A stretch of 64,000 nt of DNA from an uncultured Eubacteriales bacterium. GTDB taxonomy: Bacteria; Actinomycetota; Coriobacteriia; Anaerosomatales; PHET01. The notes beneath the pieces are model-generated. The model worked only from the letters and a program-made list of their open reading frames with translations. It did no database searches and was not told where the DNA came from. This document shows, piece by piece, positions 31,159 to 57,007 of the stretch. A program made the position numbers and the translations under genes. Each line of letters begins with the position of its first letter. The stretch's first letter is position 1. The DNA is taken from positions 28,572 to 92,571 of the forward strand of contig CAZBLH010000003.1 of NCBI GenBank assembly GCA_964492775.1, given 5' to 3'.

Positions 31159-32144
31159 GGGCGCCGCCCTTTGCGGCGAGCTCGCTCGGCAAGCGCGATC
31201 CTAAGCGGTTGCACGATGCCTTTGACCCGGTTCGCAGCCCGGATCACCGAATCCCCGGCGCGCCTGCCGAACACGCGGTAGACGCCGGCCTTGAAACGCC
31301 TGGCCTGGGCATCCGTGTACTCGGCGACGGTCGTGCCGTCCTCCTCGAGCTGACGAATGCGCTCACGGAACCGCTCGATCGACTTGGTGGCAAGCGCCTT
31401 CTCGCGCTCGCCGAACGTCCCGTCGGCAGAGAGTTCCTCGAGAATGTCGATGTAGGACAGGAACGACGGAATCGGGTCCTCATTCATCCGGCCGGACAGC
31501 TCCATCGTGTACAGGTAGATGTGCTCGGGCACGTAGCGGTGCCTCGCGCCAGCCGCGAGCGCGCGCAGCCACAGGTCGTAGTCCTCGCAGCGCACGTGAG
31601 GCCGAAAGCCACCCAGGCGCTCGAGAGTGCTACGACGGATCGTGGCCGCGCCACCAAAGATCCAGCAGTCCTCGATGAGATCGTCGACCGTGAGTGAGAG
31701 CGAGCGCAGATACTTCGGGTCGTTCAGAGCCTCTCGCCGGGTGCCGTCTGGGTAGACCTTGTAGCCCGTCGCCGAGTAGATGTCGTAGCCCGGCTCCGCA
31801 TCGATTGCGCTCGAGAGCACCGAGAGCGCGTCAGGAGTCAGGGCGTCGTCAGCGTCAATCTTCGTGACGAACTCCCCGCAGGCGACGGCCGCTCCCGCCT
31901 GGCGCGCTCCCGCACATCCGGCGTTTCGCTGCGTGAGCACGCTCACTCGCTGGTCGGTGCGCTCCCACCCGCGCGCGATCGACAACGTGTCGTCCGCCGA
32001 GCCGTCGTCGACCACGATGAGCTCGAAGTCCCGGCAGCTCTGCGACAACACGCTTTCGACTGCCCGCGCAAGCGTCCCTGCGGCGTTGTACGCGGGCATT
32101 ACCAGCGAGAAGCGCGGCGAGGAGCCGTGGTCGGATGCGGTCAC
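31155..32144 (-). CDS. Glycosyltransferase family 2
   Basis: 329 aa. FSLVMPAYNAAGTL...IVVDDGSADDT...IDADD. It is a paralog of the neighbouring GT2. Confidence 0.85.
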   Translation of the reverse strand: MTASDHGSSPRFSLVMPAYNAAGTLARAVESVLSQSCRDFELIVVDDGSADDTLSIARGWERTDQRVSVLTQRNAGCAGARQAGAAVACGEFVTKIDADDALTPDALSVLSSAIDAEPGYDIYSATGYKVYPDGTRREALNDPKYLRSLSLTVDDLIEDCWIFGGAATIRRSTLERLGGFRPHVRCEDYDLWLRALAAGARHRYVPEHIYLYTMELSGRMNEDPIPSFLSYIDILEELSADGTFGEREKALATKSIERFRERIRQLEEDGTTVAEYTDAQARRFKAGVYRVFGRRAGDSVIRAANRVKGIVQPLRIALAERARRKGRRP

Positions 32145-33991
32145 TGCGCCAGCATCTCCTCGGCACGCGTGATGTACGCCTCGGTGGCCGGATACGTGGC
32201 GCCAAGAGCCCGAGCACGAGCGATGCGCTCCGGCAGCGAGGCCGTATCACCCGTCACAATTGCGAGGTGCAGCTGCTCGGCGGCGAGGGAGGGCAAATCC
32301 GGGACAGCCTCCTCGGCGCGCTCGAGCAGGCCGCGCTCCCACGAGAAGTCGGTCTCGCCGAGCGACTCACCCTGACCCATGCCGAACGCCGCGAACTGCA
32401 CCAGGTTAGGCGCGAAGCCGGTGATGTATCCGGGAGCCGCATCCACGGAGGCACGCGCGGCGGCGAGTTCGTCCGAGGTCGCGGCGCCAATGAGCGCGAG
32501 ATCGATCCGGCGGCGCTCGTTCAGCGGCTCACCGGGGATGATACGAGCCGCACGCTCGACGCGCGCGACGTCGTCGGCAAGGCTTCCCTGGCCGGCGATC
32601 TGGCCGGCATCAAGCCCGAAGCCGCGCCACACGCCGTAGCCCCCGAGTGCGACCGCTAACACGAGCGCCACCCAGCGAAGCGCTCCAGATGCACCGAGCT
32701 CACGCTCACCCGCCGAAGAATGCGCTGGAGCAGCGATGGCAAACCCGCCGACGACGACGCCCAGCAGCCCTGAGGCAAAATGCACCGGTGTGACCATGAG
32801 CGAGAACAGGTACGCGGCGAAGCCGACCGCGAGACCGAGCCGCACGGTGTTCGCAGGTGAGTGAGGCGCCGGCGCAACCAACTCAGCCACTCGGCGAGTC
32901 CAGATCACGAGCAGTGCGACGAGAGCGGCCATGCCGAGCAACCCGAGGCGCGTGAGCGCCTCCCAGAGCAGCGAGTGCGGCGAGGGGGCGCTGAAGGCGG
33001 TCGGATCGCTACCGGCCCCCGCGATGTAGGCGAACACGCCGGGGTCGTACCGGTCGACCGCGAAGAACCGGTACCCTGCCGGGCCGAACCCGAGCACAGG
33101 CCGCTCGGCGACCATGCGCTGTGCGCCCTCCCAAAGGTACAGGCGCGTAGCCACTGTCTGCTCGGCGCCCGCGCCCTTCTCGGCATCGATGAGCCACGAC
33201 CCCAGGGCCGGGACCTGCACCAGCACGATCACCACGCACGCGAGTGCCAGGACCGCCGCCGCTGAGACGCGTAGCGCGCGGTGCCACGAAGTCGGCACGG
33301 GCAGCAGCTGCGGCCCCGCGACGCACGTGAGAAGCAACCCCATGCCGAGCATGAAGATCGCCGAGAGCCCCGCCGCCGCGTAGGCGAGGCCGAGCGCCAT
33401 GCCGAGTGCCAGGAGGTCGTAGGCGAGCGGGCGCTCCGAGGTCCTCGCCAGGCCGAGCGACACGAAGATGAGCGGCGCGAGGGCGGGTACCGAGTAGGCC
33501 GGGCTGCCGAAGGTGGTCACGAAGCCCTGGGTCCAGCGCCAGACGACCATCACCGCGATCAGCGCCGCGCCGGCGTACACGGTCCAGCGCATCGCTTCGC
33601 GCGTGTGCTCGCCCAGCGGGAAGCATGCAGCTACGAGAAAGACCGCCGGGTACGCGAGCCATAGCACGCCCGGCATCTCCCCGTAGAGATCGAACAGCGC
33701 CTGCTGCACAGGAAAGACGTTGCTCGCGAGCGAGAAGGCAGCCACCGCGAGCAGCCCTGCGATCCCAGCAAGCACGGAGCGCCTCGGCAGGCGCAGACGC
33801 GGTGCGAGCCACGCGGCAGCCGCGATCCACACCCCTGCTGTCACGAGATGCAGCGCCTGGGCGGCAGGCTGCGCCGGCAGGGTCACGACAAGCCATGCGC
33901 CAGGCGACAGGAACGCCGCGAGGACGAGCAGGGTGACGAGCCGGGGATCGAGACGCGGGCCGGAGTTGGACGGAGCTTTAGCCATGTTCAC
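32141..33991 (-). CDS. Wzy_C (O-antigen ligase-like) polytopic membrane protein with soluble C-terminal domain
   Basis: 616 aa. The Wzy_C core is RLYLWEGAQRMVAERPVLGFGPAGY...PSPHSLLWEALTRLGLLG. It has more than 10 TM helices. Confidence 0.78.
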   Translation of the reverse strand: MNMAKAPSNSGPRLDPRLVTLLVLAAFLSPGAWLVVTLPAQPAAQALHLVTAGVWIAAAAWLAPRLRLPRRSVLAGIAGLLAVAAFSLASNVFPVQQALFDLYGEMPGVLWLAYPAVFLVAACFPLGEHTREAMRWTVYAGAALIAVMVVWRWTQGFVTTFGSPAYSVPALAPLIFVSLGLARTSERPLAYDLLALGMALGLAYAAAGLSAIFMLGMGLLLTCVAGPQLLPVPTSWHRALRVSAAAVLALACVVIVLVQVPALGSWLIDAEKGAGAEQTVATRLYLWEGAQRMVAERPVLGFGPAGYRFFAVDRYDPGVFAYIAGAGSDPTAFSAPSPHSLLWEALTRLGLLGMAALVALLVIWTRRVAELVAPAPHSPANTVRLGLAVGFAAYLFSLMVTPVHFASGLLGVVVGGFAIAAPAHSSAGERELGASGALRWVALVLAVALGGYGVWRGFGLDAGQIAGQGSLADDVARVERAARIIPGEPLNERRRIDLALIGAATSDELAAARASVDAAPGYITGFAPNLVQFAAFGMGQGESLGETDFSWERGLLERAEEAVPDLPSLAAEQLHLAIVTGDTASLPERIARARALGATYPATEAYITRAEEMLAQ

Positions 33992-34069: not shown

Positions 34070-35977
34070 GTGTCCGCTGCCCATAAGACGTCCTGGATCG
34101 CGCTCCTGTGTGTGATGGTCGCCGTCCCCACTGTCGTAGGCACTCTGCCGTTCGGGTACCAGTTCATGCTAAGCCCGTTCTCTTCCCCTGCAGTGCTTAT
34201 CCTCGGAGTTGGAGCCGCAGTATCCGTCATCGCCTGGGCCGTCGCGTGCCTTCGCGGAGAACTCGGATACCGACACCACTCGCTTATGCCCGTGGTGGGC
34301 ATCTTCGCCCTGATGGCGGGCCTCTCCACCCTCTTCTCGCTGGACCGCGACTACGCGTTCTTCGGCGACGGCGACGATCTGAACGGCCTCGCCGTGTACG
34401 TGCTCTGTGCTCTGCTTGTGCCCGTCACGGCCAGCCTCTGTTCGGGCTCACGGAGGATCCGGTCGCTCACGACCGCGGTGATCGCTTCGGGTGTAGTGGT
34501 GGGAGCTATCGCACTTCTCCAGCAGCTGTTCGGCGCTGACATCTTCCGCGAGATAGCCGCGGATCAAGTCGCCGAACTCGGCTGGCTGATATCGCAGGGC
34601 GCCTCGACTCTCGGCAACCCCGACTTCACCGGCACCTTCCTCGTGGCGCCGGCAGTGCTCGCGATCGCCCGCGCAATCGCATCCGATACGCGCGATCCGG
34701 CCGCCGCAGCCGTCGAGATCGCCCCTGCCGCCGTCATCTCGGGGGCGCTCGTCCTGACGCTGACCCGCGGGGCATGGCTCGGCCTCGCAGCGGGCGTTGG
34801 AGTGCTGCTCGCGATCACCATCGTCCGCAGCGGCAAGTCGGCTGCGCACCTGCGGCGCGTGGCCATCGCCGGCGCCATCACCCTTGCTGCGGTACTCGCC
34901 CTCGGGGGCTCCGAGATCCTCCGGCGCTTCCGAGAGCTCGCCGAGGGCGGTCTCGCAGGGCTCGCCGGACGCACGATCATCTGGTCCGAGACGCTGCGCA
35001 TGATCGCCGAGCGTCCCCTTTTGGGCACCGGCCCTGCTGCGTTCAGGCTCGGCTGGTACCAGGCACGCGAGGTTGCGGGCCTGATCGTCTCGGCTGACGC
35101 CTTCGCCACCGACGCGCACAACTACCCGCTCATGCTCGCGGCGACCATGGGCATCCCCGCCGCCGTCGCGCTCCTGTACGTGTGGATCCACGCGCTGGTG
35201 GACTCGAGGCGCCTCGTTTGGGGCGGCGAGGCCAAGGGGTCGATCGACTATCAGGGCTGGTGGGCCGCATCGCTCGCGCTTGCGGTCGCGCTTCTGACCG
35301 GCGTCGCCACCACGCCGGTGGTGCTACTGGTTTTCGTGGGGATTGGCGTGCTCCTGTCGCCTCTCGCGTCGCCTCCGGCCTCCTCCCCCGGCAGGCAAGC
35401 CGCGATTTCGTACCCGGCGGCCGCGATCGCGCTCGCGGCGCTTGTCGCGACCGGCGCGCAGGGGTGGGCGCATGTCGCCGCGCGCTCGGCGCTGAACGAG
35501 TCTCCGCAGGCGCTGTCCCAAGTGGCCGCATCGGTTCCGTGGAACGGCCACCTCGGGCTTCTCGCCGCGCAGCTGGAGGCCGCCGCGGCGCAGCAGGCCT
35601 TCGTCACCTCCGAAGACGGGCGCGACACCCTCGCGCGAGTCTTCGGACCACCCGCCGAGCGGCATCCGAACGATCCCGAGTTCGCGGCCTCATGGGCTGT
35701 CCAGCTTTTCATCGCCGGGGAAACGTTGGGCGATCGGGACTTGTTCACTGAGGGCCTCGAGGTCTCCGAGCGGGCGGTGAGGCTCTACCCGAACTCGCTC
35801 CGGCTGCGTACCGACCGCGCGCGGGCGTTGATCGCGTCTGGGCAGCCCGAGAAGGCGCTTGAGGAACTCCAGCGGTTCAGGGAGCTTGACGCTAGCGCGC
35901 CCGATGTCGGTGTGGTGCGCGGTTTGATCGACGATGCTGAGGCGGCCGCCTCCGGGGAGACGACCACGACGCCCTAG
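34070..35977 (+). CDS. Wzy_C (O-antigen ligase-like) polytopic membrane protein with C-terminal TPR-like domain
   Basis: 635 aa. LTRGAWLGL...GRTIIWSETLRMIAERPLLGTGPAAF...DAHNYPLML. The C-terminal 170 aa or so are helical repeats. It is divergent from 32141..33991 across a 78-bp spacer. Confidence 0.78.
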   Translation: MSAAHKTSWIALLCVMVAVPTVVGTLPFGYQFMLSPFSSPAVLILGVGAAVSVIAWAVACLRGELGYRHHSLMPVVGIFALMAGLSTLFSLDRDYAFFGDGDDLNGLAVYVLCALLVPVTASLCSGSRRIRSLTTAVIASGVVVGAIALLQQLFGADIFREIAADQVAELGWLISQGASTLGNPDFTGTFLVAPAVLAIARAIASDTRDPAAAAVEIAPAAVISGALVLTLTRGAWLGLAAGVGVLLAITIVRSGKSAAHLRRVAIAGAITLAAVLALGGSEILRRFRELAEGGLAGLAGRTIIWSETLRMIAERPLLGTGPAAFRLGWYQAREVAGLIVSADAFATDAHNYPLMLAATMGIPAAVALLYVWIHALVDSRRLVWGGEAKGSIDYQGWWAASLALAVALLTGVATTPVVLLVFVGIGVLLSPLASPPASSPGRQAAISYPAAAIALAALVATGAQGWAHVAARSALNESPQALSQVAASVPWNGHLGLLAAQLEAAAAQQAFVTSEDGRDTLARVFGPPAERHPNDPEFAASWAVQLFIAGETLGDRDLFTEGLEVSERAVRLYPNSLRLRTDRARALIASGQPEKALEELQRFRELDASAPDVGVVRGLIDDAEAAASGETTTTP

Positions 35978-35980
35978 CTG

Positions 35981-37252
35981 CTACCGCCTGTCAGGGTGGC
36001 ACATCGCGCAGGTGTTCGGGAACCACTTCTGCTTGTTGTGGCAGTCCTCGCAGCTGTTCACCGGCTGCCGCTGATGCTCTTCGCGCCAGCTACCGTCCTC
36101 GGAGTGCAGCGGCATGTCGAACTCGTGGCATCCGGCCCGGTAGCAGGAGCGTCGCTGCTCGGTGTGGCACTTGAAGCAGGTCTGTCCGCCGTTGTCCCAC
36201 AGGTCGACGGCAGCATCACGCATGTGACTGGTCACGTACTCGGCGGCATGTGGGAGCCTGACACCATGGCAGCTGTCACACGGGGCGGGATCATGGCAGC
36301 TGTAGCAGTCGGGGTTGAGCACGAGCTGGCGCGGCTCGGGATTCTGCTCGCTCCGGCGCCCCACGGCGGCCCGGCTCACATCGCCCGTATGGCACGTCTC
36401 GCAGCCTCCGGGAGCCTGATCGCCATCGTGGCAACGCAGACACGGGCCCATGCCCTCGATGACGCCGGTGACGTGCTGGTTGGAGTCGAGCAGGTGGCAG
36501 TCTTGGCAGGTCGCCCCCGCCTCAAGCGGCTCGCGATGCGACATCTGCAACGCGCGTTCCGGGTTCTCGGTGATACCCGTCAGGACCGCCGAATGGCACC
36601 GGGTGCAACCGCGCGACGTGCTCGCCCCGTAGCTGCCTGAGGGGTTCTCGGCGAACATCGCGCTCGTGATGTGGACCACACGGGGCGCCACCGAGATGGT
36701 GACGGCGGCCACGGGGTTGCCGGCTTCATGGCACCGGACGCAGGTCACGGAGGCGTGAGGGTCGGCGTCGGCCGCTGTCACGTGATCCGTGTCGTTGTGG
36801 CACGAGGTGCACACTGAGCGGCTCTGGGTGGTGACGCCGGTGGCGATGATGAGGAAGGCAGCCACGAACGCGGCCCACAGGAACCTCTTGTGGAAGCGCA
36901 GGGGGTCCTTCACCCGCTCGGCGGCGCGCACGGTCGACGGCGCGACCACGGCGCCCTCGCCCGCCCCCTGCAGCTCCTCGGATACCAGCACACGGGTGCC
37001 GTCTTCCCGAATGAGTACCTGGACCTCTTCTTCTTCCCTGACTCGCATCAGGAGCGCGACAACGCTCATGATCACCATCAGCAGGACCACGACGACGATC
37101 ACGGCCATGACGATAGCGGCCGGCTTGTTGCTGGCCGGGTCCCTCACGATTCCGAGGATTGTCGGCCAGAGGTTTTCGAAGAACTCCCGGTCAGGCACGC
37201 GGATCTCTGCAGTCGACAGAAGCTCAAACAGCTCCCTGAGACCGTCCATCAC
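35981..37252 (-). CDS. Membrane-anchored multiheme cytochrome c, 12 heme-binding motifs
   Basis: 423 aa with two hydrophobic helices (about aa 44-68 and 125-140). It has 11 CXXCH motifs plus one CX4CH (CYRAGCH). The start is GTG 37252 (GTGA overlap) or ATG 37249 (TGATG). Confidence 0.88.
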   Translation of the reverse strand: MMDGLRELFELLSTAEIRVPDREFFENLWPTILGIVRDPASNKPAAIVMAVIVVVVLLMVIMSVVALLMRVREEEEVQVLIREDGTRVLVSEELQGAGEGAVVAPSTVRAAERVKDPLRFHKRFLWAAFVAAFLIIATGVTTQSRSVCTSCHNDTDHVTAADADPHASVTCVRCHEAGNPVAAVTISVAPRVVHITSAMFAENPSGSYGASTSRGCTRCHSAVLTGITENPERALQMSHREPLEAGATCQDCHLLDSNQHVTGVIEGMGPCLRCHDGDQAPGGCETCHTGDVSRAAVGRRSEQNPEPRQLVLNPDCYSCHDPAPCDSCHGVRLPHAAEYVTSHMRDAAVDLWDNGGQTCFKCHTEQRRSCYRAGCHEFDMPLHSEDGSWREEHQRQPVNSCEDCHNKQKWFPNTCAMCHPDRR

Positions 37253-38205
37253 TGGGCATCACCCCCAAGCGAGACGGCGCCGCCCGGGTGCACGTGCTTC
37301 TCGTGGCAGGTAGTGCAGTCCTGCTCGGCATGGCAGCGCGAGCAAGACTCGTCGCCCTGTTCGCGCACGAGAGCGCTGTGTTCCTGGACGAACGCATTGG
37401 GGTGCGGCATCTCAAGGGTGTGACAGTCGTTGCAGAACTTCTGCTCGTGGCAGTCGCCACACTGGGCGCCGTTCGTCTGCGAGGTGGGGCCATGCAGTTC
37501 GAAGAACTTACTGTCGTGCGGTACCCCGGCACCGTGGCAGCGCGTGCAGTAGTCCTGCGGGTGACAGGCGCCGCACGTGGACATCGCGCCCATACCGTGA
37601 GTCGTTTCCCAGTTCGGGCCATGGGTGATCGCCCAGGGGCCGGTCGTGGGACGACGGCGGGAGTCGGCCGCCTGCGTATGGCAGGTCTCACACGAGGTAG
37701 AAACCTGCTTGACCTCGTGGCAGCGCAGGCACATGTCCATATGATAGGTGGTCGGCCACTTGATCGACTCGGCATGCGCGACGGTCGAGTGGCAGTCGGT
37801 GCACGCCGAGCCTTCTGCGCAAGACTCGTGCCGGATCCGAAGGCCGCGGGCATCGATAACGCCGGGCAGCTTCTCGTGACAGCTCCTGCAGGCAGCGTCG
37901 TCGACTCCGGCAACCGAGCTTCCCTGGGTATGGAGCACCGGAAGGGTCATGGCGTACGCCTGATAGAAGCCGAACTGCAGTCGCTCAGAGAGGCCCCTGC
38001 CGATGTGGCAGTCCTGGCAAGACGCCTCAGTGCCCGCGTGCGCGGCGACGTCAACCTCGGCGACCAGCCCCCTGCCTTCGTGGCATGAGACGCATCCCAC
38101 CGGAGCCGCGGCAAAGACGACGGGAAGCCCGGCGAACAGCACGAACGCGGCGACGAGCGCCCAAGGCGCCCACCGGACTATGCGTCGCGTAATCTCGGGA
38201 TTCAC
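37249..38205 (-). CDS. Membrane-anchored NapC/NirT/NrfH-like multiheme cytochrome c, 12 CXXCH motifs
   Basis: 318 aa. An N-terminal TM helix is immediately followed by CVSCHE, and there are 12 CXXCH in total (about one per 26 aa). GTG start with AGGAG 5 nt upstream. Confidence 0.88.
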   Translation of the reverse strand: MNPEITRRIVRWAPWALVAAFVLFAGLPVVFAAAPVGCVSCHEGRGLVAEVDVAAHAGTEASCQDCHIGRGLSERLQFGFYQAYAMTLPVLHTQGSSVAGVDDAACRSCHEKLPGVIDARGLRIRHESCAEGSACTDCHSTVAHAESIKWPTTYHMDMCLRCHEVKQVSTSCETCHTQAADSRRRPTTGPWAITHGPNWETTHGMGAMSTCGACHPQDYCTRCHGAGVPHDSKFFELHGPTSQTNGAQCGDCHEQKFCNDCHTLEMPHPNAFVQEHSALVREQGDESCSRCHAEQDCTTCHEKHVHPGGAVSLGGDAQ

Positions 38206-38314
38206 TCGTCTCCTAAGAAGACTGCTCAGACTTCGTAAGAATCAACAGAAGTATAGCAAACAACATGCCCTGAAAGAGCAGCTCGATATCTGCTGCCCGA
38301 CGACCCGGAACGCA

Positions 38315-38345
38315 GAACGGGCCGACCCGAAGGGCCGACCCGTTC
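38315..38345 (-). terminator. GC-rich hairpin after the 7-heme cytochrome gene
   Basis: GAACGGGCCGACCC-GAA-GGGCCGACCCGTTC is an imperfect 14-bp stem with 2 mismatches. It lies about 40 nt downstream of the stop at 38386. There is no U-tract. Confidence 0.45.
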
Positions 38346-38385
38346 TCACAGGCACCGATCGGTACCTGGGCCTTACTGGTTGACG

Positions 38386-39645
38386 CTACTTCGTGGCGAA
38401 GTTGAGCGCCGCGGACCCACCGTGCGATCCGGTATCCTGCAGGCCGTGCCTGGGCCAGTACTTGTAGCCGTGGCACTTCAGGCAGGTACCGTCGTTGATG
38501 TTGCCGGCGTGACCATCGTGGAAGCCAGCGGCGTCGTCGATGACCTTGCGGCTCGGGTTGGTGGTACCGGTGGCAGACGGAGCGCCAGCGGTGTCACGCA
38601 TGGTCGCGTCGCCCGCATACATCCAGAGGTTGCCGCTTTCAACGGTCCTCTCGCTCGGCGAGCCGTCGGCCTCGGTCTCCAGGACGACGATGTTGCGGTT
38701 GGCGTGCGGGAAAGCACTCGAGTTGGTGGCCTTGCCCTTCATGTCGTGGCACGCGGCGCACTTGTTGTCGTTGGTCACGTGGCACGGACCGCAGCCGGAA
38801 GGCATGTTGGTGATGTGGCCGGTCATGACCTGGTCGAGCGTGGTGCTCGCCGCAGGCTTCGAAGCGCGAAGCTCGCCGTAGCCATGCTTGTTGACCGCGA
38901 ACTGCGAGGAGCTGTGGCAGCCGGCGGCGCCACACGTGTAGCCGGTGGCCATGGCCTTGGCAGTCGCGATGTCCTGAGGGGCGGTGCCGAGACCGTTGAA
39001 GAAGGTCGTGCCGTTGATCGCGGCGTAGGTCGCGTGCTTGTTCGAACCACCAGCGCCCGCGCCGGTGCTCTCGCTGACGTTACCAGCGCCGAACGCCTCC
39101 AAGATCGCGAGGTCGTTGCGGTTGGTCAGGTTCAGGGCATTGATCGCGCCGAACAGGGACGTGGTTCCGCCGTGAACGCCAGCGTGGCAGGCGCCCAGGC
39201 ACTGGAAGCTCGAGTGCGGGCCACTACCGGTCGGCGCCCACTCGACGAGAGCGGTCGACACGGGGTTGGAGCCCGACGGGGTGTGGCATGCGACGCATGC
39301 CTGGGCACCCGGGGTGAGCTTCCAGTACGTACCGACACCAGCGGCGGTCAGGTCGGACTGCGCGCGGTGGGCCGAGTGACACACGGCACACTTGGTGGTG
39401 TTGACGGCGTAGCCGCCGTGCGGGGTGTCGCCGTTGACGCTCGTGCCGCCGTTGTAGTTGGCCGAAATCGCGTTGGCGCCCTGCCAGGACAGATAGCCCG
39501 GTGCCGCGTTAACGGTGGAGGTCGCCGGGTCGCCGGCGAGGACGGGGTTGTTGTAGGCGTATCCAGCGTACTTCGCGAACGCGACCGTGCTGAAGGAAAG
39601 GACGAAGACGGCAGCGAGGGCGAAGACGAAGAGAGTCTTCTTCAT
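38386..39645 (-). CDS. Secreted multiheme cytochrome c, 7 heme motifs (paralog 1)
   Basis: ATG 39645 has AAGGAG upstream. An alternative ATG at 39693 has AAAGGAGG upstream. Sec signal peptide MKKTLFVFALAAVFVLSFSTVAFA|KYAGY. Motifs are CAVCH, CVACH, CLGACH (CX3CH), CGAAGCH (CX4CH), CGPCH, CAACH and CLKCH. The first pair resembles the doubled-CXXCH domain. Confidence 0.88.
   Translation of the reverse strand: MKKTLFVFALAAVFVLSFSTVAFAKYAGYAYNNPVLAGDPATSTVNAAPGYLSWQGANAISANYNGGTSVNGDTPHGGYAVNTTKCAVCHSAHRAQSDLTAAGVGTYWKLTPGAQACVACHTPSGSNPVSTALVEWAPTGSGPHSSFQCLGACHAGVHGGTTSLFGAINALNLTNRNDLAILEAFGAGNVSESTGAGAGGSNKHATYAAINGTTFFNGLGTAPQDIATAKAMATGYTCGAAGCHSSSQFAVNKHGYGELRASKPAASTTLDQVMTGHITNMPSGCGPCHVTNDNKCAACHDMKGKATNSSAFPHANRNIVVLETEADGSPSERTVESGNLWMYAGDATMRDTAGAPSATGTTNPSRKVIDDAAGFHDGHAGNINDGTCLKCHGYKYWPRHGLQDTGSHGGSAALNFATK
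38471..38764 (-). repeat. Near-identical nucleotide block shared by cytochrome paralogs 1 and 2 (C-terminal coding part)
   Basis: 38471..38764 aligns without gaps to 40052..40345. By eye, roughly nine of ten positions are identical. Weaker similarity continues to about 38950/40530. Confidence 0.85.
39169..39439 (-). repeat. Second near-identical block shared by cytochrome paralogs 1 and 2 (doubled-CXXCH region)
   Basis: 39169..39439 aligns to 40789..41066 with one 6-nt indel. A more diverged copy lies at about 55400..55700 in paralog 3. Confidence 0.85.
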
Positions 39646-39755
39646 GCTTGTTACTCCTTGTAGAGTCGAAGTAGAGATAGAAGTCTTTTGCATTCTTGCA
39701 CCTCCTTTCCAGACATGAATTTCTGACGGAACACACACAATTTCCATCACGGTAG

Positions 39756-39784
39756 ATACTACAGGCTCAAACGGCCGGGTGCAA
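39756..39784 (-). promoter_or_regulatory. Candidate sigma70-type promoter for cytochrome paralog 1 inside an AT-richer 336-bp spacer
   Basis: The minus strand reads TTGCAC-17 nt-TAGTAT, about 100 nt upstream of the start codon. The spacer 39646..39981 is visibly less GC-rich than its surroundings. Confidence 0.3.
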
Positions 39785-39936
39785 TGCTTTCTTTAACTAA
39801 TCTTAGCTTCGTTCATGACGGTAGCCGATGCGTCCCGATTGGTGGCAAGTCATCCTTATCGCTTCTGAACCTGCGACACCGTACCGGTCGTTTCTTGCGG
39901 ATCCACACCGCTCCCCTGGGCAGGCTCGGAGAATGA

Positions 39937-39966
39937 GGCGGGGTCGACCCTCAGGCCGACCCCGCC
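39937..39966 (-). terminator. Perfect 10-bp GC hairpin after the 14-heme cytochrome gene
   Basis: GGCGGGGTCG-N10-CGACCCCGCC starts 16 nt after the stop at 39982. There is no U-tract. Confidence 0.5.
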
Positions 39967-39981
39967 AGAGACACCAGACCC

Positions 39982-41733
39982 CTACCTGCGGGTGAAGTCC
40001 GTGACCGAACCGGCCGAGTGGTAGGCGTTCGGGCCGAAGTAGCCCATGCCATGGCACTTCAGGCAGGTACCGTCGTTGATGTTGCCGGCGTTACCATCGT
40101 GGAAGCCAGCGGCGTCGTCGATGACCTTGCGGCTCGGGTTGGTGGTACCGGTTTCAGACGGAGCGCCAGCCGTGTCACGCATGGTCGCGTCGCCCGCGTA
40201 CATCCAGAGGTTGCCGCTTGCAACGGTCGTCTCGGTCGTCGAGCCGTCGGCCTCGGTCTCCAGGACGACGATGTTGCGGTTGGCGTGCGGGAAGGCGCTC
40301 GAGTTGGTGGCCTTGCCCTTCATGTCGTGGCACGCGGCGCACTTGCTGTCTCGGCTTGCGTGACACGGCTCGCACCCGCGGATCATATTGGTGCTGTGGC
40401 CGGTCATGGCCTGGTCGAGCGTGCTGCTCGCTGCGGGATTCGATGCGCGAAGCTCGGCGTAGCCGTTCTGATTGACCGCAAACTGCGAGGAGCTGTGGCA
40501 GCCGGCGGCGCCACACGTGTAGCCGGTCACCATAGCGCGCATCACCGCCAGCCCCTGGTTTCCGCCGTACGAGTCGTTGGGCCCGAAGTCGTTGTCGCGG
40601 AACTCGTCCTCGTCGAACGATGCATAGTAGTCGTCCCCGTGTGACCCGCCGTTAGAGGCCACCGAGTCGGAGTTGGGCTGATTGTCGATGCTCGGAGCGT
40701 TGCCTGCGGCGAAGGCCGCTGCGAGTGCCGCATCATTGCGGGAGGTGAGGTTCCAAGCACGCACCGCTCCGTACTCGGAGGCCATCCCACCGTGAACGCC
40801 AGCGTGGCAGGCGCCCAGGCACTGGAAGCTCGAGTGCGGGCCACCCTGGCTATAGGTCGACGACCACTCGACGAGAGCGGTCGACACGGGATTCGCACCC
40901 GACGGGGTGTGGCATGCGACGCATGCCTGGGCACCCGGCGTGAGCTTCCAGTACGAACCGACACCAGCGGCGGCCAGATCGGACTGCGCGCGGTGGGCCG
41001 AGTGACACACAGCACACTTGGTGGTGTTGACGGCGTAGCCACCGTGCGGGGTGCTGCCGTTGACGGCTCCCGCGATCATGTTTGCCTCGGCCCATGTCAG
41101 ATACGGGTCCAATGAAGCGCCAGCGTAGTGTGCTCCAGGGTGACAGCTGTCACACCGCAGGTCGTCGGCGGCAATCGCAGCGATCACCTTCGGGTCCGTA
41201 CTGCTATGGCAAGCCCAGCAGTCGCCACCGTGCTCCGACAGGACGTCGGTCGTGTGGCAGTCGCCGCATGCGGCGTCGGGCAGGGCTCCCGTGTGAGGAG
41301 GGAACTCCCCGTGAGCCGGAGGAACCGAAGGACGAGAAGGATTGTGGCAGTCCTGACACTCGTACGTGCGGCTGGTGGTGGTGACGCCATCGGCGTTAAC
41401 CGTGCCGGGGATGAATGGATCCGAGTAGTGCCCCATCTGACCGGCGACTTCGGGCTCGTGGCAGTCCAGACACTCGTCATCCGACTGGACTTGACGGTGA
41501 TCGTCATAGTACGACGGACGTCGATTGAGCGGTTCGGTGCCGTATGGGTGACACGTCACGCAGTCGTTCCCGGCAGGGTGCGCGACCACGGTGTGACACC
41601 CGGCGCACTCCAACGCGAGCGCCGGAGCCGCATCAGCGATCAGCATGGTCACCGCGACTAGGAACAGTACGGCTACCACGACCGCCGTTCGAACGAACGC
41701 CCCTCGTTTGAGAGCTAGTGGCATCGTCATCAC
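39982..41733 (-). CDS. Secreted/anchored multiheme cytochrome c, 14 heme motifs (paralog 2 = 7-heme N-terminal module fused to the paralog core)
   Basis: 583 aa with an N-terminal hydrophobic signal/anchor (AVVVAVLFLVAVTMLIADAAPALA). Seven CXXCH lie in aa 40-200. From aa 201 or so (HYAGASLDPY..PHGGYAVNTTKCAVCHSAH) it is collinear with paralogs 1 and 3, including CLGACH and CGAAGCH. Confidence 0.88.
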   Translation of the reverse strand: MMTMPLALKRGAFVRTAVVVAVLFLVAVTMLIADAAPALALECAGCHTVVAHPAGNDCVTCHPYGTEPLNRRPSYYDDHRQVQSDDECLDCHEPEVAGQMGHYSDPFIPGTVNADGVTTTSRTYECQDCHNPSRPSVPPAHGEFPPHTGALPDAACGDCHTTDVLSEHGGDCWACHSSTDPKVIAAIAADDLRCDSCHPGAHYAGASLDPYLTWAEANMIAGAVNGSTPHGGYAVNTTKCAVCHSAHRAQSDLAAAGVGSYWKLTPGAQACVACHTPSGANPVSTALVEWSSTYSQGGPHSSFQCLGACHAGVHGGMASEYGAVRAWNLTSRNDAALAAAFAAGNAPSIDNQPNSDSVASNGGSHGDDYYASFDEDEFRDNDFGPNDSYGGNQGLAVMRAMVTGYTCGAAGCHSSSQFAVNQNGYAELRASNPAASSTLDQAMTGHSTNMIRGCEPCHASRDSKCAACHDMKGKATNSSAFPHANRNIVVLETEADGSTTETTVASGNLWMYAGDATMRDTAGAPSETGTTNPSRKVIDDAAGFHDGNAGNINDGTCLKCHGMGYFGPNAYHSAGSVTDFTRR

Positions 41734-41801
41734 GCACCCCCCGCTTCGGTACAGTCACCGCTGACGTGCCTGTCTGGCGAGCAGCAACCGTCTGATTAAC
41801 C

Positions 41802-41831
41802 ATTATTGCACGCCTCTGTGATTGTTGTGAA
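41802..41831 (-). promoter_or_regulatory. Candidate promoter for the 14-heme cytochrome gene
   Basis: The minus strand reads TTCACA-18 nt-AATAAT, about 70 nt upstream of the start at 41733 and just downstream of the terminator hairpin. Confidence 0.25.
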
Positions 41832-41866
41832 GAAGTATTGCCGTTCGGCACGGTTTGCAGCACAAA

Positions 41867-41902
41867 GATGAAGGAGCGGCACTGAGGCGCCACTCCTTCA
41901 TC
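41867..41902 (-). terminator. Rho-independent-like terminator after the NHL gene
   Basis: GATGAAGGAG-N16-CTCCTTCATC is a 10-bp perfect stem. On the transcribed strand it is followed by TTTGTG. It lies about 37 nt after the stop at 41939. Confidence 0.55.
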
Positions 41903-41938
41903 TTGACTCACCGCATTTCCCGGGCTGCGAGCGGCCCG

Positions 41939-43210
41939 TTATGAATCCGACAGGCTGTCCGCGAATGCCTGATTCTCGGCGAGCTCGGCCTGCCGCTGTG
42001 CACTTCTCTTGCGCAGCGCGCGCACGACGGCGACGACAGCCAGCACGAGCAGCAGCAACAGCAGCGGGATCAAGCAGGCCTTCAGCGGGCCGGACAGCAG
42101 GCGCCTAGCAGCGGCCGCGGCGGAGTCGCCCGAGTCCGGAACTCGGATGATCTGCGCACGCTGGTTGCCCGAGTCCGAGACCACGAACCAGTCATGGACA
42201 GCATCGTAGTCGATGTCGGCGGGGTACATGAACTTGCCGTCCTCGCGCCCGAACGTGCCCCACTTGCCCAGCACCGAACCGTCTTCCGTGTCGAATGCGG
42301 CGATGGAGAAGTCGAGCAGGTCGACGACGACCAGGCGCCCTGCCCCATCAATCGTGGCGCCCATGGGGGCCTGCATCATGGCCGGATACTCCTCTGCGAG
42401 CTTCTCTGCGTCGCCGGGGTCCATGTTGGAGCCCGCTCGGTTCGCCGGACGCCCGGTCTCGACGATCCAGACCCGCTCTCCTTCAGCGTCGTACTTGCTG
42501 ATCCGGTTGTTGAACGTGTCGACGATGTAGGCGTTGTTCTCATCGTCGAGCGCCACGCCATTGACGGTGTCGAACTGGTCGTCTTCAATGCCGCGAACGC
42601 CGATGATGCCGATGAGCTGTCCCTCGCGGTCGTACGCGGCGAACCCTGACTGGGCGCCGATGACAACCATCTCATCATTGGCCGCGACCGACATCGGACT
42701 CGGGATGTTGAGTGTCTGACGCAGAGTGCCGTTCTCGTCGTACGCCTTCACGGTGTTGTACGTCGACTGCACGACGTAGAGCCAGCCGTCAGGCGCGAGC
42801 GCGATGCGCGACGGGTAGTCGAACTTGTCCCCGTTGGCGGTGTCGCCCTCGAACACGCCGAGGTAGCGACCGTTCGCGTCGTACTTCACGATGCGGAAGC
42901 GTCCCTGGTCGGCAACCCAGATGGTTCCGCCTTCCGAAGGAATCGCGGCCGAGGCAGGCTCGGTCATCTGACTGATATCAGGCCCGTACCCGTAGATCGA
43001 ACGGATCCATGTCACGCCGCCGATCTCGTCGGCCTCGGGACCGTCGTTGTTCCCGAGAAGCTGGGTCAGCAGTCCGAAGGCGACGAGCAGGATGATGATG
43101 AGCAACGCCAGCAGAGCCGTCAGGATACGGCGACCTCGGCGCGACACGTACGCCTTGTTGTCCTGCGGCGGCTCAAGCACTACCGCCTGTTCGGAGATAA
43201 CAGGATCCAT
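41939..43210 (-). CDS. NHL-repeat beta-propeller protein with N- and C-terminal TM helices
   Basis: 423 aa. TM helices are at about aa 28-50 and 385-407. The region between has about 6 NHL-like blades (F.YP..IA...DG.LYV.D...N.V..YD..G). The ATG abuts the upstream TAG (TAGATG). Confidence 0.82.
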   Translation of the reverse strand: MDPVISEQAVVLEPPQDNKAYVSRRGRRILTALLALLIIILLVAFGLLTQLLGNNDGPEADEIGGVTWIRSIYGYGPDISQMTEPASAAIPSEGGTIWVADQGRFRIVKYDANGRYLGVFEGDTANGDKFDYPSRIALAPDGWLYVVQSTYNTVKAYDENGTLRQTLNIPSPMSVAANDEMVVIGAQSGFAAYDREGQLIGIIGVRGIEDDQFDTVNGVALDDENNAYIVDTFNNRISKYDAEGERVWIVETGRPANRAGSNMDPGDAEKLAEEYPAMMQAPMGATIDGAGRLVVVDLLDFSIAAFDTEDGSVLGKWGTFGREDGKFMYPADIDYDAVHDWFVVSDSGNQRAQIIRVPDSGDSAAAAARRLLSGPLKACLIPLLLLLLVLAVVAVVRALRKRSAQRQAELAENQAFADSLSDS

Positions 43211-44101
43211 CTACTTCTCAACTCCGATCTTCTTCAGGCCAGCGAGCGCTTCCTCGTAGTCAGGGATGAACCGGAGGGCTTCTCGGAAGTCCTTCTCGGC
43301 ACCCTCGGTGTCACCGAGTTCGGCCTTGGCGTTACCGCGCTCAACCAGAACCCCCGCCTCGCGAGGATGGTTGGCCAGGTACGTGTCGAACATCTCTACC
43401 GCCTGCTCCCACTTGCCGGTCTCGGCGTAGATGCCTGCCCGGCTGAGCGCGCTGAGATAGTAGTTCTGATGCCGGCCGTAGGCGACGGCCCAGTTCTGGA
43501 ACTCGCCGCCCTCCTTGTACTCCTTCTCGTAGGCCTCGTCCGTCTTCTTCATGACCTGCTCGAAGATCTTCGCGGCCTCGTTTAGCTCGCCCTGGGCCTT
43601 CTTGAGTTCAGCCTCGACGAACAGCATCTGGGATCCCTGAGACTGGTCGATTTTGTCATTGGAGTTGACTTCGTCGATCACGTCCTGCGCGCGCGAGAAC
43701 TCCTCGGCGGTGATCAGGGCCAGAACGTACGACTGGTACTGGTCGGCGTTGGCGTCCTCCTGCTTGACGGAGGACTCCCACCCCGCGAGATCGCGCTCGG
43801 CCTGGGTGCGCGGCGCCTGGTCAGGTCCGATGAAGCCGAAGAACAGCGCGGCGGCGACGGTCATCAGCGCGCCGACGACGATGAGAGCCGCCGCCCACCC
43901 CATGACTCGAACGACCGGGTCCTCCCAGATTGAACGCCGTCGTCTGACCGTGACGATCTGGCCGGTACCGGTAGCGCGCTCCGGGGCGGCCTGCCCGGCC
44001 TGCCCAGCGTCCACCGGCCCGAGATCCTCAGACCTCTGTGCCTCGTCCACCATCGAATACCTCCGCCTTCGAGTCTCACCCGTGCTCGCCTGAGCGCGCA
44101 T
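43211..44101 (-). CDS. Membrane-anchored TPR-repeat protein
   Basis: 296 aa. One TM helix (VMGWAAALIVVGALMTVAAALFFGFI) is followed by TPR-like helical repeats (AYGRHQNYYLSALSRAGIYAETGKWEQAVEMFDTYL..). Confidence 0.75.
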   Translation of the reverse strand: MRAQASTGETRRRRYSMVDEAQRSEDLGPVDAGQAGQAAPERATGTGQIVTVRRRRSIWEDPVVRVMGWAAALIVVGALMTVAAALFFGFIGPDQAPRTQAERDLAGWESSVKQEDANADQYQSYVLALITAEEFSRAQDVIDEVNSNDKIDQSQGSQMLFVEAELKKAQGELNEAAKIFEQVMKKTDEAYEKEYKEGGEFQNWAVAYGRHQNYYLSALSRAGIYAETGKWEQAVEMFDTYLANHPREAGVLVERGNAKAELGDTEGAEKDFREALRFIPDYEEALAGLKKIGVEK

Positions 44102-45310: not shown

Positions 45311-46651
45311 TCACGCCGAGTCCGGCATCGCGCGGCGGCGGATGCCCTCGTCCGCGCCGGCTGCAAGGCCCAGGGTGAACAGGGTCGTGCAAGCGAACGC
45401 CGGCATGCTCGAAGCCGGCAGGGCCATCCCCGTCACCAGCCAGGCTACGGCGGTGAGCGGGCCGAGTAGAGGCGCGGAAGCGTACCTGCGCAAGCCAGTC
45501 CAGGCCAGTGCGAGCACGGCGACTCCAAGCAACAGAGGCCCGCCCCAGACAAGGCGCTCGAGAAAGTCGTTGTGGAGGGAGACGCCTGCGGCCCACTCCG
45601 GAGGCTGGAGCAAGCCGAACGGGTGCTCCCGCCACAGAGCAATGCCGATGCGCCACCGCGCGAGTCTGCCGGCGGTCAGTTCGTCTGCGGCAGTGATTCC
45701 CTGCTCGGCCGTCCCCGCCTGGACGACTGCCTCCACCGACCGATGCAGGGTCTCAATGCGCGGCATCACGACCACCGTGCCGAGAATGACGGTCACCAGG
45801 AGGAGGACCAGGAACGCCAGACGGTACCAGCTCCGTCCCTTGCCCCTCGCGAAGCTGCGGCGCCGGATCCAGTGCACCCCCGCGATCATGACGCAGACAA
45901 CCGACGCGATCAGCGCCGTCCTTGAGGCCGACAGCAGCACGATGCCGAGGCCGGTGAGCACAGCGGTCCCGCGGGTTCTCGGCTGTCTGCCGCGCCAGGT
46001 CACGCCCCAAATCAGCAGTACGACGCCGAGCGCACCGGTGAAGTTCGGATCGATGTCGAGCGCGGCCGTCCTGAAGGACTCGGTGGGGTCTCGTGTCCAT
46101 ACCTGAATCGCCGAGGGCAGGGCACCGTTCCATGCGGCGAGTCCCGAAGCGAGCGGATTGCCCAATCCGAGGAAGTCCAGACCCTCGGCCCCAGCGACGA
46201 TGAGCGTGACGATGCCCACGACCGCATACATCGGCCCCGGGTACCGGGGATTCGTGACACCTGCCGAGAAGCCGATGTAGATGCTCGCCGCAAGCGCCAC
46301 TGGGAGCAGGCCCGACTCCACGGAGTAGAGCAATGCACCAGCCGGACTGGACGCGTGTATCGCGCCCGTGAGCGCGCGGACTCCCACGTCTAACGCGACC
46401 AGAACCACCCACGGCCACAGAGCACGCGTTGACGCGAACGCGTGGGCGGCGCCTCCCGGAGCGAGCGATAGCAGGAACGCGGCGGCGATCACCAGCAGGG
46501 TCGTGACCCTGACGCTTCCATCGAGAAGCCACAGCCGGTTGGCAAAGAGTGCGTTCAGTCCTATGGCGGCGATACCGCCCACCTGCAGCACGTCCACCAT
46601 GCTCGGGCGTTGCGAACCGTTCATCCACGGCCTCGCGGGATTGGTTGACAT
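45311..46651 (-). CDS. Wzy_C-family membrane protein (O-antigen polymerase/ligase-like)
   Basis: 446 aa, about 11 TM helices. SASRTALIA...GRLARWRIGIALWREHPFG...SLHNDFLERLVWGG. It has no C-terminal soluble domain. Confidence 0.78.
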   Translation of the reverse strand: MSTNPARPWMNGSQRPSMVDVLQVGGIAAIGLNALFANRLWLLDGSVRVTTLLVIAAAFLLSLAPGGAAHAFASTRALWPWVVLVALDVGVRALTGAIHASSPAGALLYSVESGLLPVALAASIYIGFSAGVTNPRYPGPMYAVVGIVTLIVAGAEGLDFLGLGNPLASGLAAWNGALPSAIQVWTRDPTESFRTAALDIDPNFTGALGVVLLIWGVTWRGRQPRTRGTAVLTGLGIVLLSASRTALIASVVCVMIAGVHWIRRRSFARGKGRSWYRLAFLVLLLVTVILGTVVVMPRIETLHRSVEAVVQAGTAEQGITAADELTAGRLARWRIGIALWREHPFGLLQPPEWAAGVSLHNDFLERLVWGGPLLLGVAVLALAWTGLRRYASAPLLGPLTAVAWLVTGMALPASSMPAFACTTLFTLGLAAGADEGIRRRAMPDSA

Positions 46652-55885: not shown

Positions 55886-55948
55886 ACCTCCTCCAAATGC
55901 CGGAAGGTGTTCAGCCGTGAGACTCCCGTCTCACATTCGCCGATATCG

Positions 55949-56902: not shown

Positions 56903-57007
56903 ACCTCCTTCTTGTGTCTCAGTTAATAACAGCGCGAGGCGTCGTCACCTCCCTCTCCTCCGCTCTCCCCGTTCTTGCTTGAGCTCTGTTTCGGTCCATC
57001 CCGAACA

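Follow-up and report, generated by a model that had tools for sequence, protein, structure and literature searches.

A conserved, reductase-free multiheme cytochrome module with a TPR/NHL protein pair in monoderm Actinomycetota: a candidate system for extracellular electron transfer

To our knowledge, extracellular electron transfer (EET) by Gram-positive bacteria is known in mechanistic terms from very few Firmicutes (Thermincola, Carboxydothermus), and for the Actinomycetota there is essentially a gene inventory only. The present analysis concerns a cluster of six genes, hereafter the module, which encodes four multiheme cytochromes, a TPR protein and an NHL propeller protein. It lies on a stretch of 64,000 nucleotides from an uncultured Eubacteriales bacterium placed by GTDB in the Actinomycetota (Coriobacteriia; Anaerosomatales; PHET01). 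This whole stretch, positions 28,572 to 92,571 of contig CAZBLH010000003.1 (assembly GCA_964492775.1, forward strand), is called the window, and positions below are counted from its first letter. It is reasonably probable that the module serves EET across the whole lineage of Coriobacteriia and their monoderm relatives among the Actinomycetota, and electron export is the most economical reading of it. This reading is carried by the co-inheritance of five core genes, by their extracytoplasmic topology, by a secreted cytochrome family in which all hemes are bis-histidine (bis-His) ligated, by the homology of the membrane-anchored cytochromes to ImdcA and PdcA, and by fusions of the secreted family to surface domains.

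Two kinds of described systems come closest. In Thermincola, with its ImdcA-PdcA-CwcA-OcwA set, a multiheme cytochrome with an uncleaved anchor has been proposed to oxidise menaquinol, and for CwcA, a hexaheme protein, an OmcS-like stack crossing the wall has been suggested; NHL proteins are not mentioned there (PMC7911101). The second kind comprises the clusters around nanowire-forming cytochromes. A minimal OmcE cluster consists of two multihemes, two beta-propeller lipoproteins, OmcE and a beta-barrel, and is commonly followed by 15-70 genes for GT2, GT4 and GT39 glycosyltransferases, sugar modification, methyltransferases, exporters and TPR proteins (bioRxiv 10.1101/2025.10.22.684050). The osc block, as it is summarised in PMC12977616 and PMC13194489 from Shen et al. 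2025, is linked to nanowire folding, secretion and morphology and holds OmcS paralogs. NHL or other beta-propellers also stand beside EET cytochromes in Desulfovibrio ferrophilus (DFE_0448-0465), in 'Ca. Tenderia' (uetA-J) and in the OmcE locus of Geoalkalibacter. Gram-positive or monoderm examples are not mentioned in a February 2026 review of nanowires.

From the order Anaerosomatales itself, isolates including an obligate Fe(III) reducer, Parvivirga hydrogeniphila, have been reported (PMC9686372). Gene clusters listed for Anaerosoma tenue (MCK8115470-72) and P. hydrogeniphila (MCL4078710-12 and MCL4079323-32) are described as holding two putative quinol-oxidising multihemes and a third multiheme, called an MtrA homolog, and, for a cluster of P. 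hydrogeniphila, as lying with cytochrome biogenesis genes and Rex. Neither NHL proteins nor nanowires are mentioned in that paper.

Layout of the module and its membrane-anchored cytochromes

The six open reading frames (ORFs) of the module are co-directional, all on the minus strand, and occupy positions 35981-44101 of a window with a base composition of about 65% G+C (Table 1). The stop codon of the TPR gene abuts the start codon of the NHL gene (TAGATG), and the reading frames of cyt12a and cyt12b share 4 bp. An earlier sequence-only reading of the window had given these six genes with the span they occupy, their domain make-up and the TAGATG junction, all of which was confirmed by the ORF coordinates, by Pfam and by hydropathy. 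Its heme inventory was reproduced by a script count: the module carries 45 heme motifs, further motifs occur in the window only in cyt7c (seven) and in a split-Soret-like gene (two), which brings the window to 54, and the 28 other window proteins have none. No CXXCK motif was counted in the four cytochromes of the module. Pfam finds the TPR and NHL domains, and the cytochromes match generic c7/c3 families only. As the same reading had stated, there is neither a catalytic partner nor a porin; no beta-barrel, molybdopterin or Fe-S subunit is present among the window ORFs scanned with Pfam, a scan which covered all but a few short ORFs of the first 4.7 kb and to which the other negative gene results for the window refer. 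In particular, no porin of the MtrCAB, PccABC or ExtABCD type was found, and matches to MtrC/MtrF domains II and IV reached 17.7-28.5 bits, all below the cutoff of 30. With a CWB2 wall-binding protein present and no beta-barrel seen, the envelope of the host is monoderm, in line with the earlier assignment. Rfam and tRNA scans of the window returned no RNA genes.

Between the NHL gene and cyt14, 35 nt past the NHL stop, lies a hairpin with a perfect 18-bp stem and a 4-nt loop (-31.8 kcal/mol, z = -9.0; none of 200 shuffles folds as well), which is probably a terminator or an RNA-stabilising element dividing a TPR-NHL unit from a cytochrome unit. It is followed 5' of cyt14 by a promoter-like site, TTCACA-18-AATAAT with a TG, which agrees with the consensus at 10 of 12 positions, a weak signal when taken alone. 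A second, terminator-like hairpin 3' of cyt7 was found by consensus scan only, in a region whose count of such sites does not exceed that of its shuffles. As weak evidence, the hairpins and the promoter-like site fit a separate, maybe stronger, expression of the secreted subunits.

Table 1. Position of the module, of further genes and of sequence elements in the window (positions from the first letter of the window).
Feature	Position	Strand	Description
TPR protein	43211-44101	-	296 aa
NHL protein	41939-43210	-	423 aa
cyt14	39982-41733	-	583 aa; 12 CXXCH + CLGACH (CX3CH) + CGAAGCH (CX4CH) = 14 heme motifs
cyt7	38386-39750 (ORF)	-	454 aa ORF; 5 CXXCH + CLGACH + CGAAGCH = 7 heme motifs
cyt12a	37249-38205	-	318 aa; 12 CXXCH
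cyt12b	35981-37252	-	423 aa; 11 CXXCH + CYRAGCH (CX4CH) = 12 heme motifs
cyt7c, third paralog	54590-55885	-	7 heme motifs; signal peptide; 72% identity to cyt7
Hairpin before cyt14	41863-41904	-	18-bp stem
Promoter-like site 5' of cyt14	41802-41831	-	TTCACA-18-AATAAT with TG
Terminator-like hairpin 3' of cyt7	38266-38280	-	consensus scan only
Wzy_C (O-antigen-ligase/PglL-type) protein with C-terminal TPR	34070-35977	+	Pfam Wzy_C + TPR_9; polytopic; convergent, ends 4 bp from cyt12b
Second Wzy_C membrane protein	32141-33991	-	Pfam Wzy_C; downstream of module
Further Wzy_C protein	24247-26274	+	Pfam
Further Wzy_C protein	45311-46651	-	Pfam
Bacillosamine-type set	20090-24445	+	four genes, see text
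Leucine-biosynthesis genes	13653-19026		leuD, leuB, LPG-synthase-like gene, ilvE, leuA
Second cytochrome unit	54590-60411	-	see text
Split-Soret-like protein	55949-56599	-	two C-terminal heme motifs; no signal peptide
RCC1/Big_5/CWB2 wall-binding protein	57781-60411	-	Pfam
Two-component set	61005-63983	-	see text

All topology calls in this study were made from hydropathy and the positive-inside rule. In cyt12a a transmembrane (TM) helix at about residues 12-33, of the uncleaved type of N-terminal anchor, is followed by CVSCH at residue 38, and in cyt12b two TM helices (45-68 and 121-143) are followed by CTSCH at 148. Homologs of cyt12a fall into 219 clusters of very uniform length, and 34 of 38 orthologs carry 12 heme motifs. 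Its neighbour cyt12b is a paralog, to which the profile of the cyt12a family gives 110 bits.

The two proteins match the membrane and periplasmic decahemes of Thermincola, which have been studied biochemically. In BLASTP, cyt12a found ImdcA of Thermincola ferriacetica nearly over its full length at E 9e-11, and cyt12b found it at E 5e-7. A profile built from 119 cyt12a homologs scored ImdcA at 70.4 bits and PdcA at 66.4, both sequences being taken from the supplement of PMC7911101 by optical character recognition, whereas 200 shuffles of each of the two, which hold every CXXCH in place, gave means of 22-24 bits with a standard deviation of 7 and a maximum of 43. Judged by these scores, cyt12a and cyt12b are homologous to ImdcA and PdcA beyond the mere spacing of their CXXCH motifs, and the earlier statement that the cluster has no match to the Thermincola set (TherJR) was wrong for these two proteins. 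Host envelope and uncleaved anchor are alike as well. The differences are that ImdcA and PdcA have ten hemes and the present proteins 12, in two coupled membrane paralogs, and that the module lacks an OcwA-like nonaheme terminal reductase; the OcwA- and OmhA-type structures 6I5B and 6QVM were matched neither by cyt7 nor by the profile of its family at E <= 10. CwcA is reported to be similar to OmcS, whereas the secreted family of the module shows no such similarity. When a metagenome collection was scanned with ImdcA for a Thermincola-like ImdcA-CwcA locus, an unrelated multiheme contig (L074) was the only return.

For the step from menaquinol, the sequence-only reading had also invoked TM-anchored proteins of the NapC/NirT/NrfH type. 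What the anchored cytochromes share with this type is their start, an N-terminal TM helix and then at once the first CXXCH, together with one heme that is probably not bis-His, both as in NrfH, NapC and CymA. What does not hold is the full domain, the thresholds for which were missed, and the size: the named proteins have 4-5 hemes, those of the module have 12 and no partner of the NrfA or NapAB type. The match of cyt12a to Pfam Cytochrom_NNT (PF03264) reaches 30.4 bits against a cutoff of 24.1 and covers only profile positions 38-78 of 174, about 40 residues; cyt12b stays under the same cutoff with 18.7 bits and has a weak match to NrfH (2J7A). With 22 histidines for 12 hemes, at least two hemes of cyt12b are therefore not bis-His. 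In the orthologs the number of histidines usually falls short of the bis-His requirement by one in cyt12a and by one to four in cyt12b, a shortfall which would fit a heme at a quinol site, of the kind suggested for ImdcA (PMC7911101).

The secreted cytochromes and the conserved TPR/NHL pair

The second group of cytochromes is predicted to be secreted. Hydropathy gives cleavable signal peptides for cyt7 and cyt7c, and a hydrophobic N-terminal segment, which may be cleaved, for cyt14. Since the database gene call for cyt7 comprises 419 aa, begins at position 39645 (M36 of the ORF) and results in the signal peptide MKKTLFV...AFA, cleaved before KY, this is most likely the true start, which places the gene at 38386-39645 (minus strand). 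In cyt14, residues 211-576 align with cyt7 over 351 residues at 75% identity, and the N-terminal part of the protein (about residues 40-200) is a c7/c3-like 7-heme segment recognised by Pfam Cytochrome_C7 and c3_2. By this alignment and domain make-up cyt14 is a fusion of a c7/c3-like 7-heme N-terminus with a module of the cyt7 family, and comparable N-terminally extended fusions are present in other loci.

Homologs of cyt7 form 93 clusters, all of them hypothetical proteins from metagenome-assembled genomes (MAGs) of Coriobacteriia and Actinomycetes, and the family profile found 656 cluster representatives among 1.84 billion proteins. In the related loci the slot of the secreted cytochrome is mostly filled by proteins of 325-400 aa with six heme motifs, of which the copies in the window are 7-heme derivatives. 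These hexaheme members have exactly 12 cysteines and 12 invariant histidines, six within the motifs and six distal, and several of them have no other histidine at all. In P0083 the distal six are H60, H77, H129, H143, H230 and H283. Such a count points to pure electron transfer with no open catalytic heme, and the ancestral secreted protein would thus have been an all-bis-His hexaheme electron-transfer protein. Many hexaheme members lack the CX3CH and CX4CH motifs, yet they keep the TPR-NHL pair.

Another feature is found at the extreme C-terminus. The hexaheme members (L025, L029, L037, L042, L054, L059, L070-L072 and P0073-P0093) end in G-V/L-G-x-x-F/Y, instead of which the 7-heme subgroup of the window has tails of the F-A-x-K/Y type. 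By the G-V/L-G-x-x-F/Y tail a partner, for instance the TPR protein, might recognise the cytochrome. Long relatives carry the family module at the C-terminus, after extra multiheme segments or after BspA-type leucine-rich repeat (LRR), Listeria-Bacteroides repeat, Big_13/Big_5 or PKD domains. Five such fusions to surface domains, of 900-1400 aa (P0369, P0345, P0433, P0406 and P0415; two of them, MAG proteins, are called InlB B-repeat proteins by NCBI), look like adhesin-cytochrome chimeras, and fusion to adhesin-type domains therefore indicates a cell-surface location of the family. On the cytochromes of the module themselves no LPXTG, SLH or CWB2 wall anchor was seen.

The structure and profile searches which the sequence-only reading had proposed gave a divided result, as the TPR and NHL proteins were identified by Pfam and the secreted family stayed unmatched in the PDB by sequence, by profile and by Foldseek. 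Neither cyt7 nor the family profile nor a hexaheme relative had a meaningful match among PDB sequences. An AlphaFold model of cyt7 (pLDDT 65, pTM 0.68) found nothing in the PDB at E <= 0.001 with Foldseek (best E 1.5), a kind of search to which heme-free models of loop-rich cytochromes are probably unsuited. For a hexaheme member, modelled with an alignment of 29 sequences, the result was unusable (pLDDT 44, pTM 0.36). A relationship to OmcS (6EF8) was considered and rejected: hhalign gave a score of 34.0 against 30.1 +/- 5.9 for motif-preserving shuffles, 34 of 150 of which scored at least as high, the match being a local one confined to heme motifs one and two (E 9e-4, probability 23%).

What the family shares with OmcS is its make-up. 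Both have six hemes, all bis-His, and twice as many histidines as hemes, which for the present family applies to the hexaheme relatives, the window copies having seven. Gly, Ala, Ser, Thr and Asn make up 52% of the residues and charged residues 12%, as compared with 49% and 14% in OmcS. The layout of the cluster is shared as well: two multihemes, a beta-propeller and a small secreted bis-His cytochrome of 4-6 hemes, often with paralogs, are common to the OmcE/OmcS (osc), uet and DFE clusters and to the module, and the TPR proteins and trailing GT2/GT4, methyltransferase and flippase genes of the OmcE/OmcS-type clusters are all in the window. In contrast to the latter, the module has a single NHL propeller on two TM helices rather than two lipoprotein propellers, and no beta-barrel and no peptidyl-prolyl isomerase; the absence of a barrel and of lipoprotein propellers is explained by the monoderm host. 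With no OmcS homology found, the parallel to the nanowire clusters is therefore architectural and not genealogical. The designation of the cluster as a possibly undescribed type was thus too strong, as its layout fits the description of OmcE/OmcS clusters (bioRxiv 10.1101/2025.10.22.684050) and similar clusters have been reported from Anaerosomatales (PMC9686372). New are the sequence-novel secreted cytochrome family and the TPR/NHL pair dedicated to it, set within the known kind of multiheme EET clusters. The earlier reading had missed the ancestral hexaheme bis-His form, the fusion in cyt14 and the conserved Wzy_C neighbours, one of them with TPR.

The TPR protein (Pfam TPR_14/16/2/1) is predicted to have an Arg-rich cytoplasmic N-terminus and a single TM helix (about residues 67-92), with the TPR domain on the extracytoplasmic side; its gene call in Logan begins 16 codons further downstream, and it has weak matches to TPR families of secretion chaperones. 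The NHL protein (Pfam NHL/SGL) matches NHL propellers in the PDB at E 1e-19. Its two TM helices (29-50 and 378-400) have Arg/Lys flanks, from which the propeller is predicted to face outward with both tails in the cytoplasm. Among the 106 database homologs listed for it, all those named by taxon belong to Coriobacteriia or Actinomycetes.

Conservation was followed by a scan of one genome per species with the cyt7 alignment, then by tblastn with the six module proteins and by contig look-ups with pre-computed Pfam annotation. The genome scan gave 67 loci, all from MAGs of Coriobacteriia/Actinomycetota with three exceptions, of which two contigs (65-67% G+C) bear the label Eubacteriales and the third is given only as a metagenome assembly. 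The order TPR-NHL-[multiheme]-cyt12a-cyt12b on one strand was found by tblastn in 25 loci, and in four loci of a termite type the secreted gene sits upstream instead. With the examples added by the contig look-ups the recurrence of the gene order, which had been proposed as a check, extends to about 30 loci of Coriobacteriia/Actinomycetota. Wherever both genes were resolved, the TPR gene lies 5' of the NHL gene and overlaps or abuts it. Because TPR/NHL and cyt12a/cyt12b overlap or abut in every locus read, they may represent two stoichiometric pairs, as this arrangement suggests. No catalytic reductase is attached to the module in any locus context read, whereas constant linkage to a known reductase had been named as a finding that would speak against electron export.

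The contexts of the module are diverse. In L069 and L070 it lies between leuC and leuD, in L069 with no glycan genes at all and in L070 with several Wzy_C genes after it. In L072 it is duplicated around leuB and adjoins leuB, the LPG-synthase-like gene, ilvE and leuA as in the window, again with no glycan genes. Distant relatives thus share the leucine-biosynthesis slot, which in the window has expanded into a glycan island of more than 40 kb. In L071 (5192-5827 and 15196-21224), Rex, a 1548-aa multiheme and ResB stand beside two tandem TPR-NHL-cytochrome triads, exactly the Rex/ResB arrangement described for a cluster of P. hydrogeniphila, which belongs to the same class (PMC9686372). Carriers of the module include subsurface and biofilm MAGs and the complete genomes OY968780.1 and OW818687.1. 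A further carrier is Coriobacteriaceae bacterium EMTCatB1 (L059, with a hexaheme member at 9905-11092), the genome of which we take to have been reconstructed from a thermophilic electromethanogenic biocathode. Where the Wzy_C neighbour is absent, membrane proteins of 504-566 aa resembling spermine synthases were observed directly 3' of cyt12b (L069:15723-19118 and L072:12247-13761).

Electron export and competing explanations

A path for electrons may be drawn from these parts. The translationally coupled cyt12a and cyt12b, membrane-anchored relatives of ImdcA/PdcA which each typically have at least one heme that cannot be bis-His, would draw electrons out of the menaquinol pool on the outer side of the membrane. 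The electrons would then pass to the secreted bis-His cytochromes rich in Gly, Ala, Ser, Thr and Asn, a set which in the window comprises three 7-heme paralogs, one of them with an extra 7-heme rod, and which would conduct them through the wall to an acceptor outside or, in reverse, from a donor outside. The likewise coupled TPR/NHL pair appears to be dedicated to the secreted cytochrome, because TPR-NHL adjoins a member of the family in nearly every locus examined. It might form a membrane platform on which the secreted cytochrome is received, docked or assembled, with its G-V/L-G-x-x-F/Y tail possibly read by the TPR domain, and the Wzy_C/TPR proteins together with the bacillosamine-type genes might glycosylate or tether the exported parts. 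The occurrence of the module in unrelated contexts such as leuC/leuD, free of any reductase, supports EET. In this respect the interpretation given to the cluster earlier holds, namely a conserved, reductase-free module with a probable role in export, and it is the claimed unrelatedness to named systems which has to be given up.

Several points weigh against electron export through the wall. What the TPR, NHL and Wzy_C proteins may do is suggested by co-inheritance and by analogy only, and electrons might flow in either direction. For quinol oxidation by cyt12a/cyt12b the indication is the resemblance of their N-termini alone, and the NrfH and NapC equivalogs were not reached (TIGR03153, 30.5 against 134.2 bits; TIGR02161, 16.9 against 310.6). 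The secreted family did not match OmcS, OmcE, OmcZ, OcwA, OmhA, MtrC or archaeal nanowire subunits in the PDB at E <= 10. Genes for cytochrome maturation and menaquinone synthesis were absent from the scanned part of the window. Many carriers are gut MAGs, and many of the MAG loci of the family presumably come from higher termites. Finally, Anaerosoma tenue has multiheme clusters and does not reduce Fe(III) (PMC9686372), so that carriage of a cluster does not predict the phenotype.

The strongest competitor is a more specific version of the EET module itself, in which the secreted 6/7-heme protein polymerises head to tail into a stack that spans the wall or into an extracellular nanowire, one heme being ligated by a histidine of the next subunit. 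TPR-NHL would be the machine for assembly and anchoring, and the base or tip would be formed by cyt14 and by the relatives fused to adhesin domains, which share the polymerisation module. We regard it as possible, if unlikely. The logic of the OmcE/OmcS clusters, with two multihemes, propellers, a small cytochrome, tandem paralogs and a trailing glycosylation island, is shared by the module, as is the OmcS-like composition. The hexaheme subunit includes among its 12 invariant histidines one that lies three residues past the first motif (KCAVCHSxH), a position which we take to be that of His16 of OmcS, the ligand of the heme of a neighbouring subunit. CXXCHXXH is a common motif, however, and an all-bis-His make-up is typical of non-polymeric relays too. 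The subunit genes may be set apart by a promoter-like site and by hairpins on either side, the fusions hold the family module at the C-terminus and vary the N-terminus, and a stack through the wall has already been proposed for Thermincola CwcA (PMC7911101). What counts against polymerisation is that neither homology to OmcS nor a match in the PDB was found and that Foldseek against the PDB came back empty, that the hexaheme model is unusable (mean pLDDT 44), and that ligation between subunits is invisible from sequence. In its full form this idea would make the module the first assembly system for a cytochrome polymer in a monoderm, in which the extracytoplasmic TPR-NHL platform, anchored in the single membrane, polymerises a hexa/heptaheme subunit of novel sequence across the peptidoglycan and further outward, which we consider unlikely. 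In this scenario fused paralogs with extra heme rods or with LRR or immunoglobulin-like (Ig) adhesin heads would be base or tip subunits, and PglL-like Wzy_C proteins would glycosylate the fibre. If true, the logic of a propeller plus two multihemes seen with OmcE/OmcS would be older than the outer membrane or would not depend on it.

An improbable explanation confines the cytochromes to the inner wall zone, where they would shuttle electrons between the quinone pool and a reductase or oxidase for a soluble substrate encoded elsewhere, or act as an electron capacitor. The TPR and NHL proteins would then be maturation factors or chaperones, in the way the TPR protein NrfG aids a special heme attachment. 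The unusual conserved CX3CH and CX4CH motifs might need such a helper, but many hexaheme members without unusual motifs keep TPR-NHL. The weak matches of the TPR protein to secretion chaperones and the lack of LPXTG, SLH or CWB2 anchors on the cytochromes would also fit, as would the related clusters of A. tenue, a species without Fe(III) reduction (PMC9686372). On the other hand, a reductase is linked to the module in no context read, and the adhesin-domain fusions place the family at or beyond the wall.

The glycan island and the significance of the module

The module is embedded in an island which extends from about 19 to 54 kb and holds genes for GT2 and GT4 glycosyltransferases, Wzx-type flippases, deacetylases, a methyltransferase, a radical-SAM protein and four Wzy_C proteins. 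It contains a bacillosamine-type set composed of a Bac_transf initiating transferase, a NeuD/PglB/VioB acetyltransferase (212 bits against a cutoff of 161), a DegT aminotransferase and a PglF-like membrane dehydratase. Taken together with the GT4s, the flippases and the Wzy_C proteins, this set resembles protein glycosylation of the pgl type, as in Neisseria and Campylobacter, where bacillosamine genes, GT4s, Wzx flippases and PglL-type Wzy_C proteins likewise occur. Unlike in the pgl systems the Wzy_C protein next to cyt12b carries TPR, and the acceptors could be wall polymers rather than proteins. The leucine-biosynthesis genes of the window lie on one side of the island, leuC not being among them.

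The Wzy_C proteins of the window have 446-675 aa, and none reaches an NCBIfam cutoff. In about 22 loci, homologs of the TPR-carrying protein or of the second Wzy_C membrane protein are encoded no more than a few kb from the module, often right after cyt12b; in L005, L023 and L027 it is an ortholog of the second protein that directly follows cyt12b. A C-terminal TPR domain is also found on some Wzy_C relatives (L070, L071), and in L070 Wzy_C proteins are present without other glycan genes. By their recurrence the Wzy_C proteins may count as further parts of the module, its sixth or seventh, and could for example act on exported proteins as an O-oligosaccharyltransferase. Wzy_C neighbours near the module were also observed in L033, L042, L054 and L070:14817-20591.

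That the cytochromes serve the glycan island, for instance by supplying redox power with which glycans or the wall are modified, is highly improbable, for although the module is embedded in some 40 kb of glycan genes and Wzy_C co-occurs widely, L069 and L072 carry the module with no glycan genes, 45 low-spin hemes are out of proportion to known glycan chemistry, and the glycan genes more plausibly serve exported proteins, as proposed for OmcE (bioRxiv 10.1101/2025.10.22.684050).

Upstream, a second cytochrome unit comprises the RCC1-propeller/Big_5/CWB2 protein, a cytoplasmic TPR protein (TPR236), the split-Soret-like protein and cyt7c. The split-Soret-like protein matches PDB 1H21 in phmmer at E 5e-4 and has a weak Pfam match to C_GCAxxG_C_C, and its gene is kept 5' of the cyt7c ortholog in L002. 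The order CWB2/RCC1 - 2 or 3 small ORFs - cyt7c is kept in a relative with 56% identity (L075:5583-11266). That TPR236 and the RCC1/CWB2 propeller form a second TPR-propeller platform at the level of the wall was considered, the parallel being partial at best, and the idea was dropped because TPR236 and the split-Soret-like protein have no signal peptides. The island could be regulated by three proteins encoded at its upstream end, namely a LytTR-type response regulator, a histidine kinase and a phosphonate-binding-like periplasmic protein.

The module is compact and well delimited, consisting of two ImdcA-like anchors, a secreted bis-His family, a TPR/NHL pair and a Wzy_C partner. It makes testable how electrons pass a thick wall without a porin in Actinomycetota, and it ties EET of monoderms to the logic by which diderms assemble cytochrome nanowires. 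The distribution of the module, with provenances which we take to be termite guts and a biocathode, suggests EET in habitats where it has been little considered. While the cytochrome sequence alone is uninformative, the TPR-NHL-hexaheme triad could mark EET potential by synteny in metagenomes of Actinomycetota.

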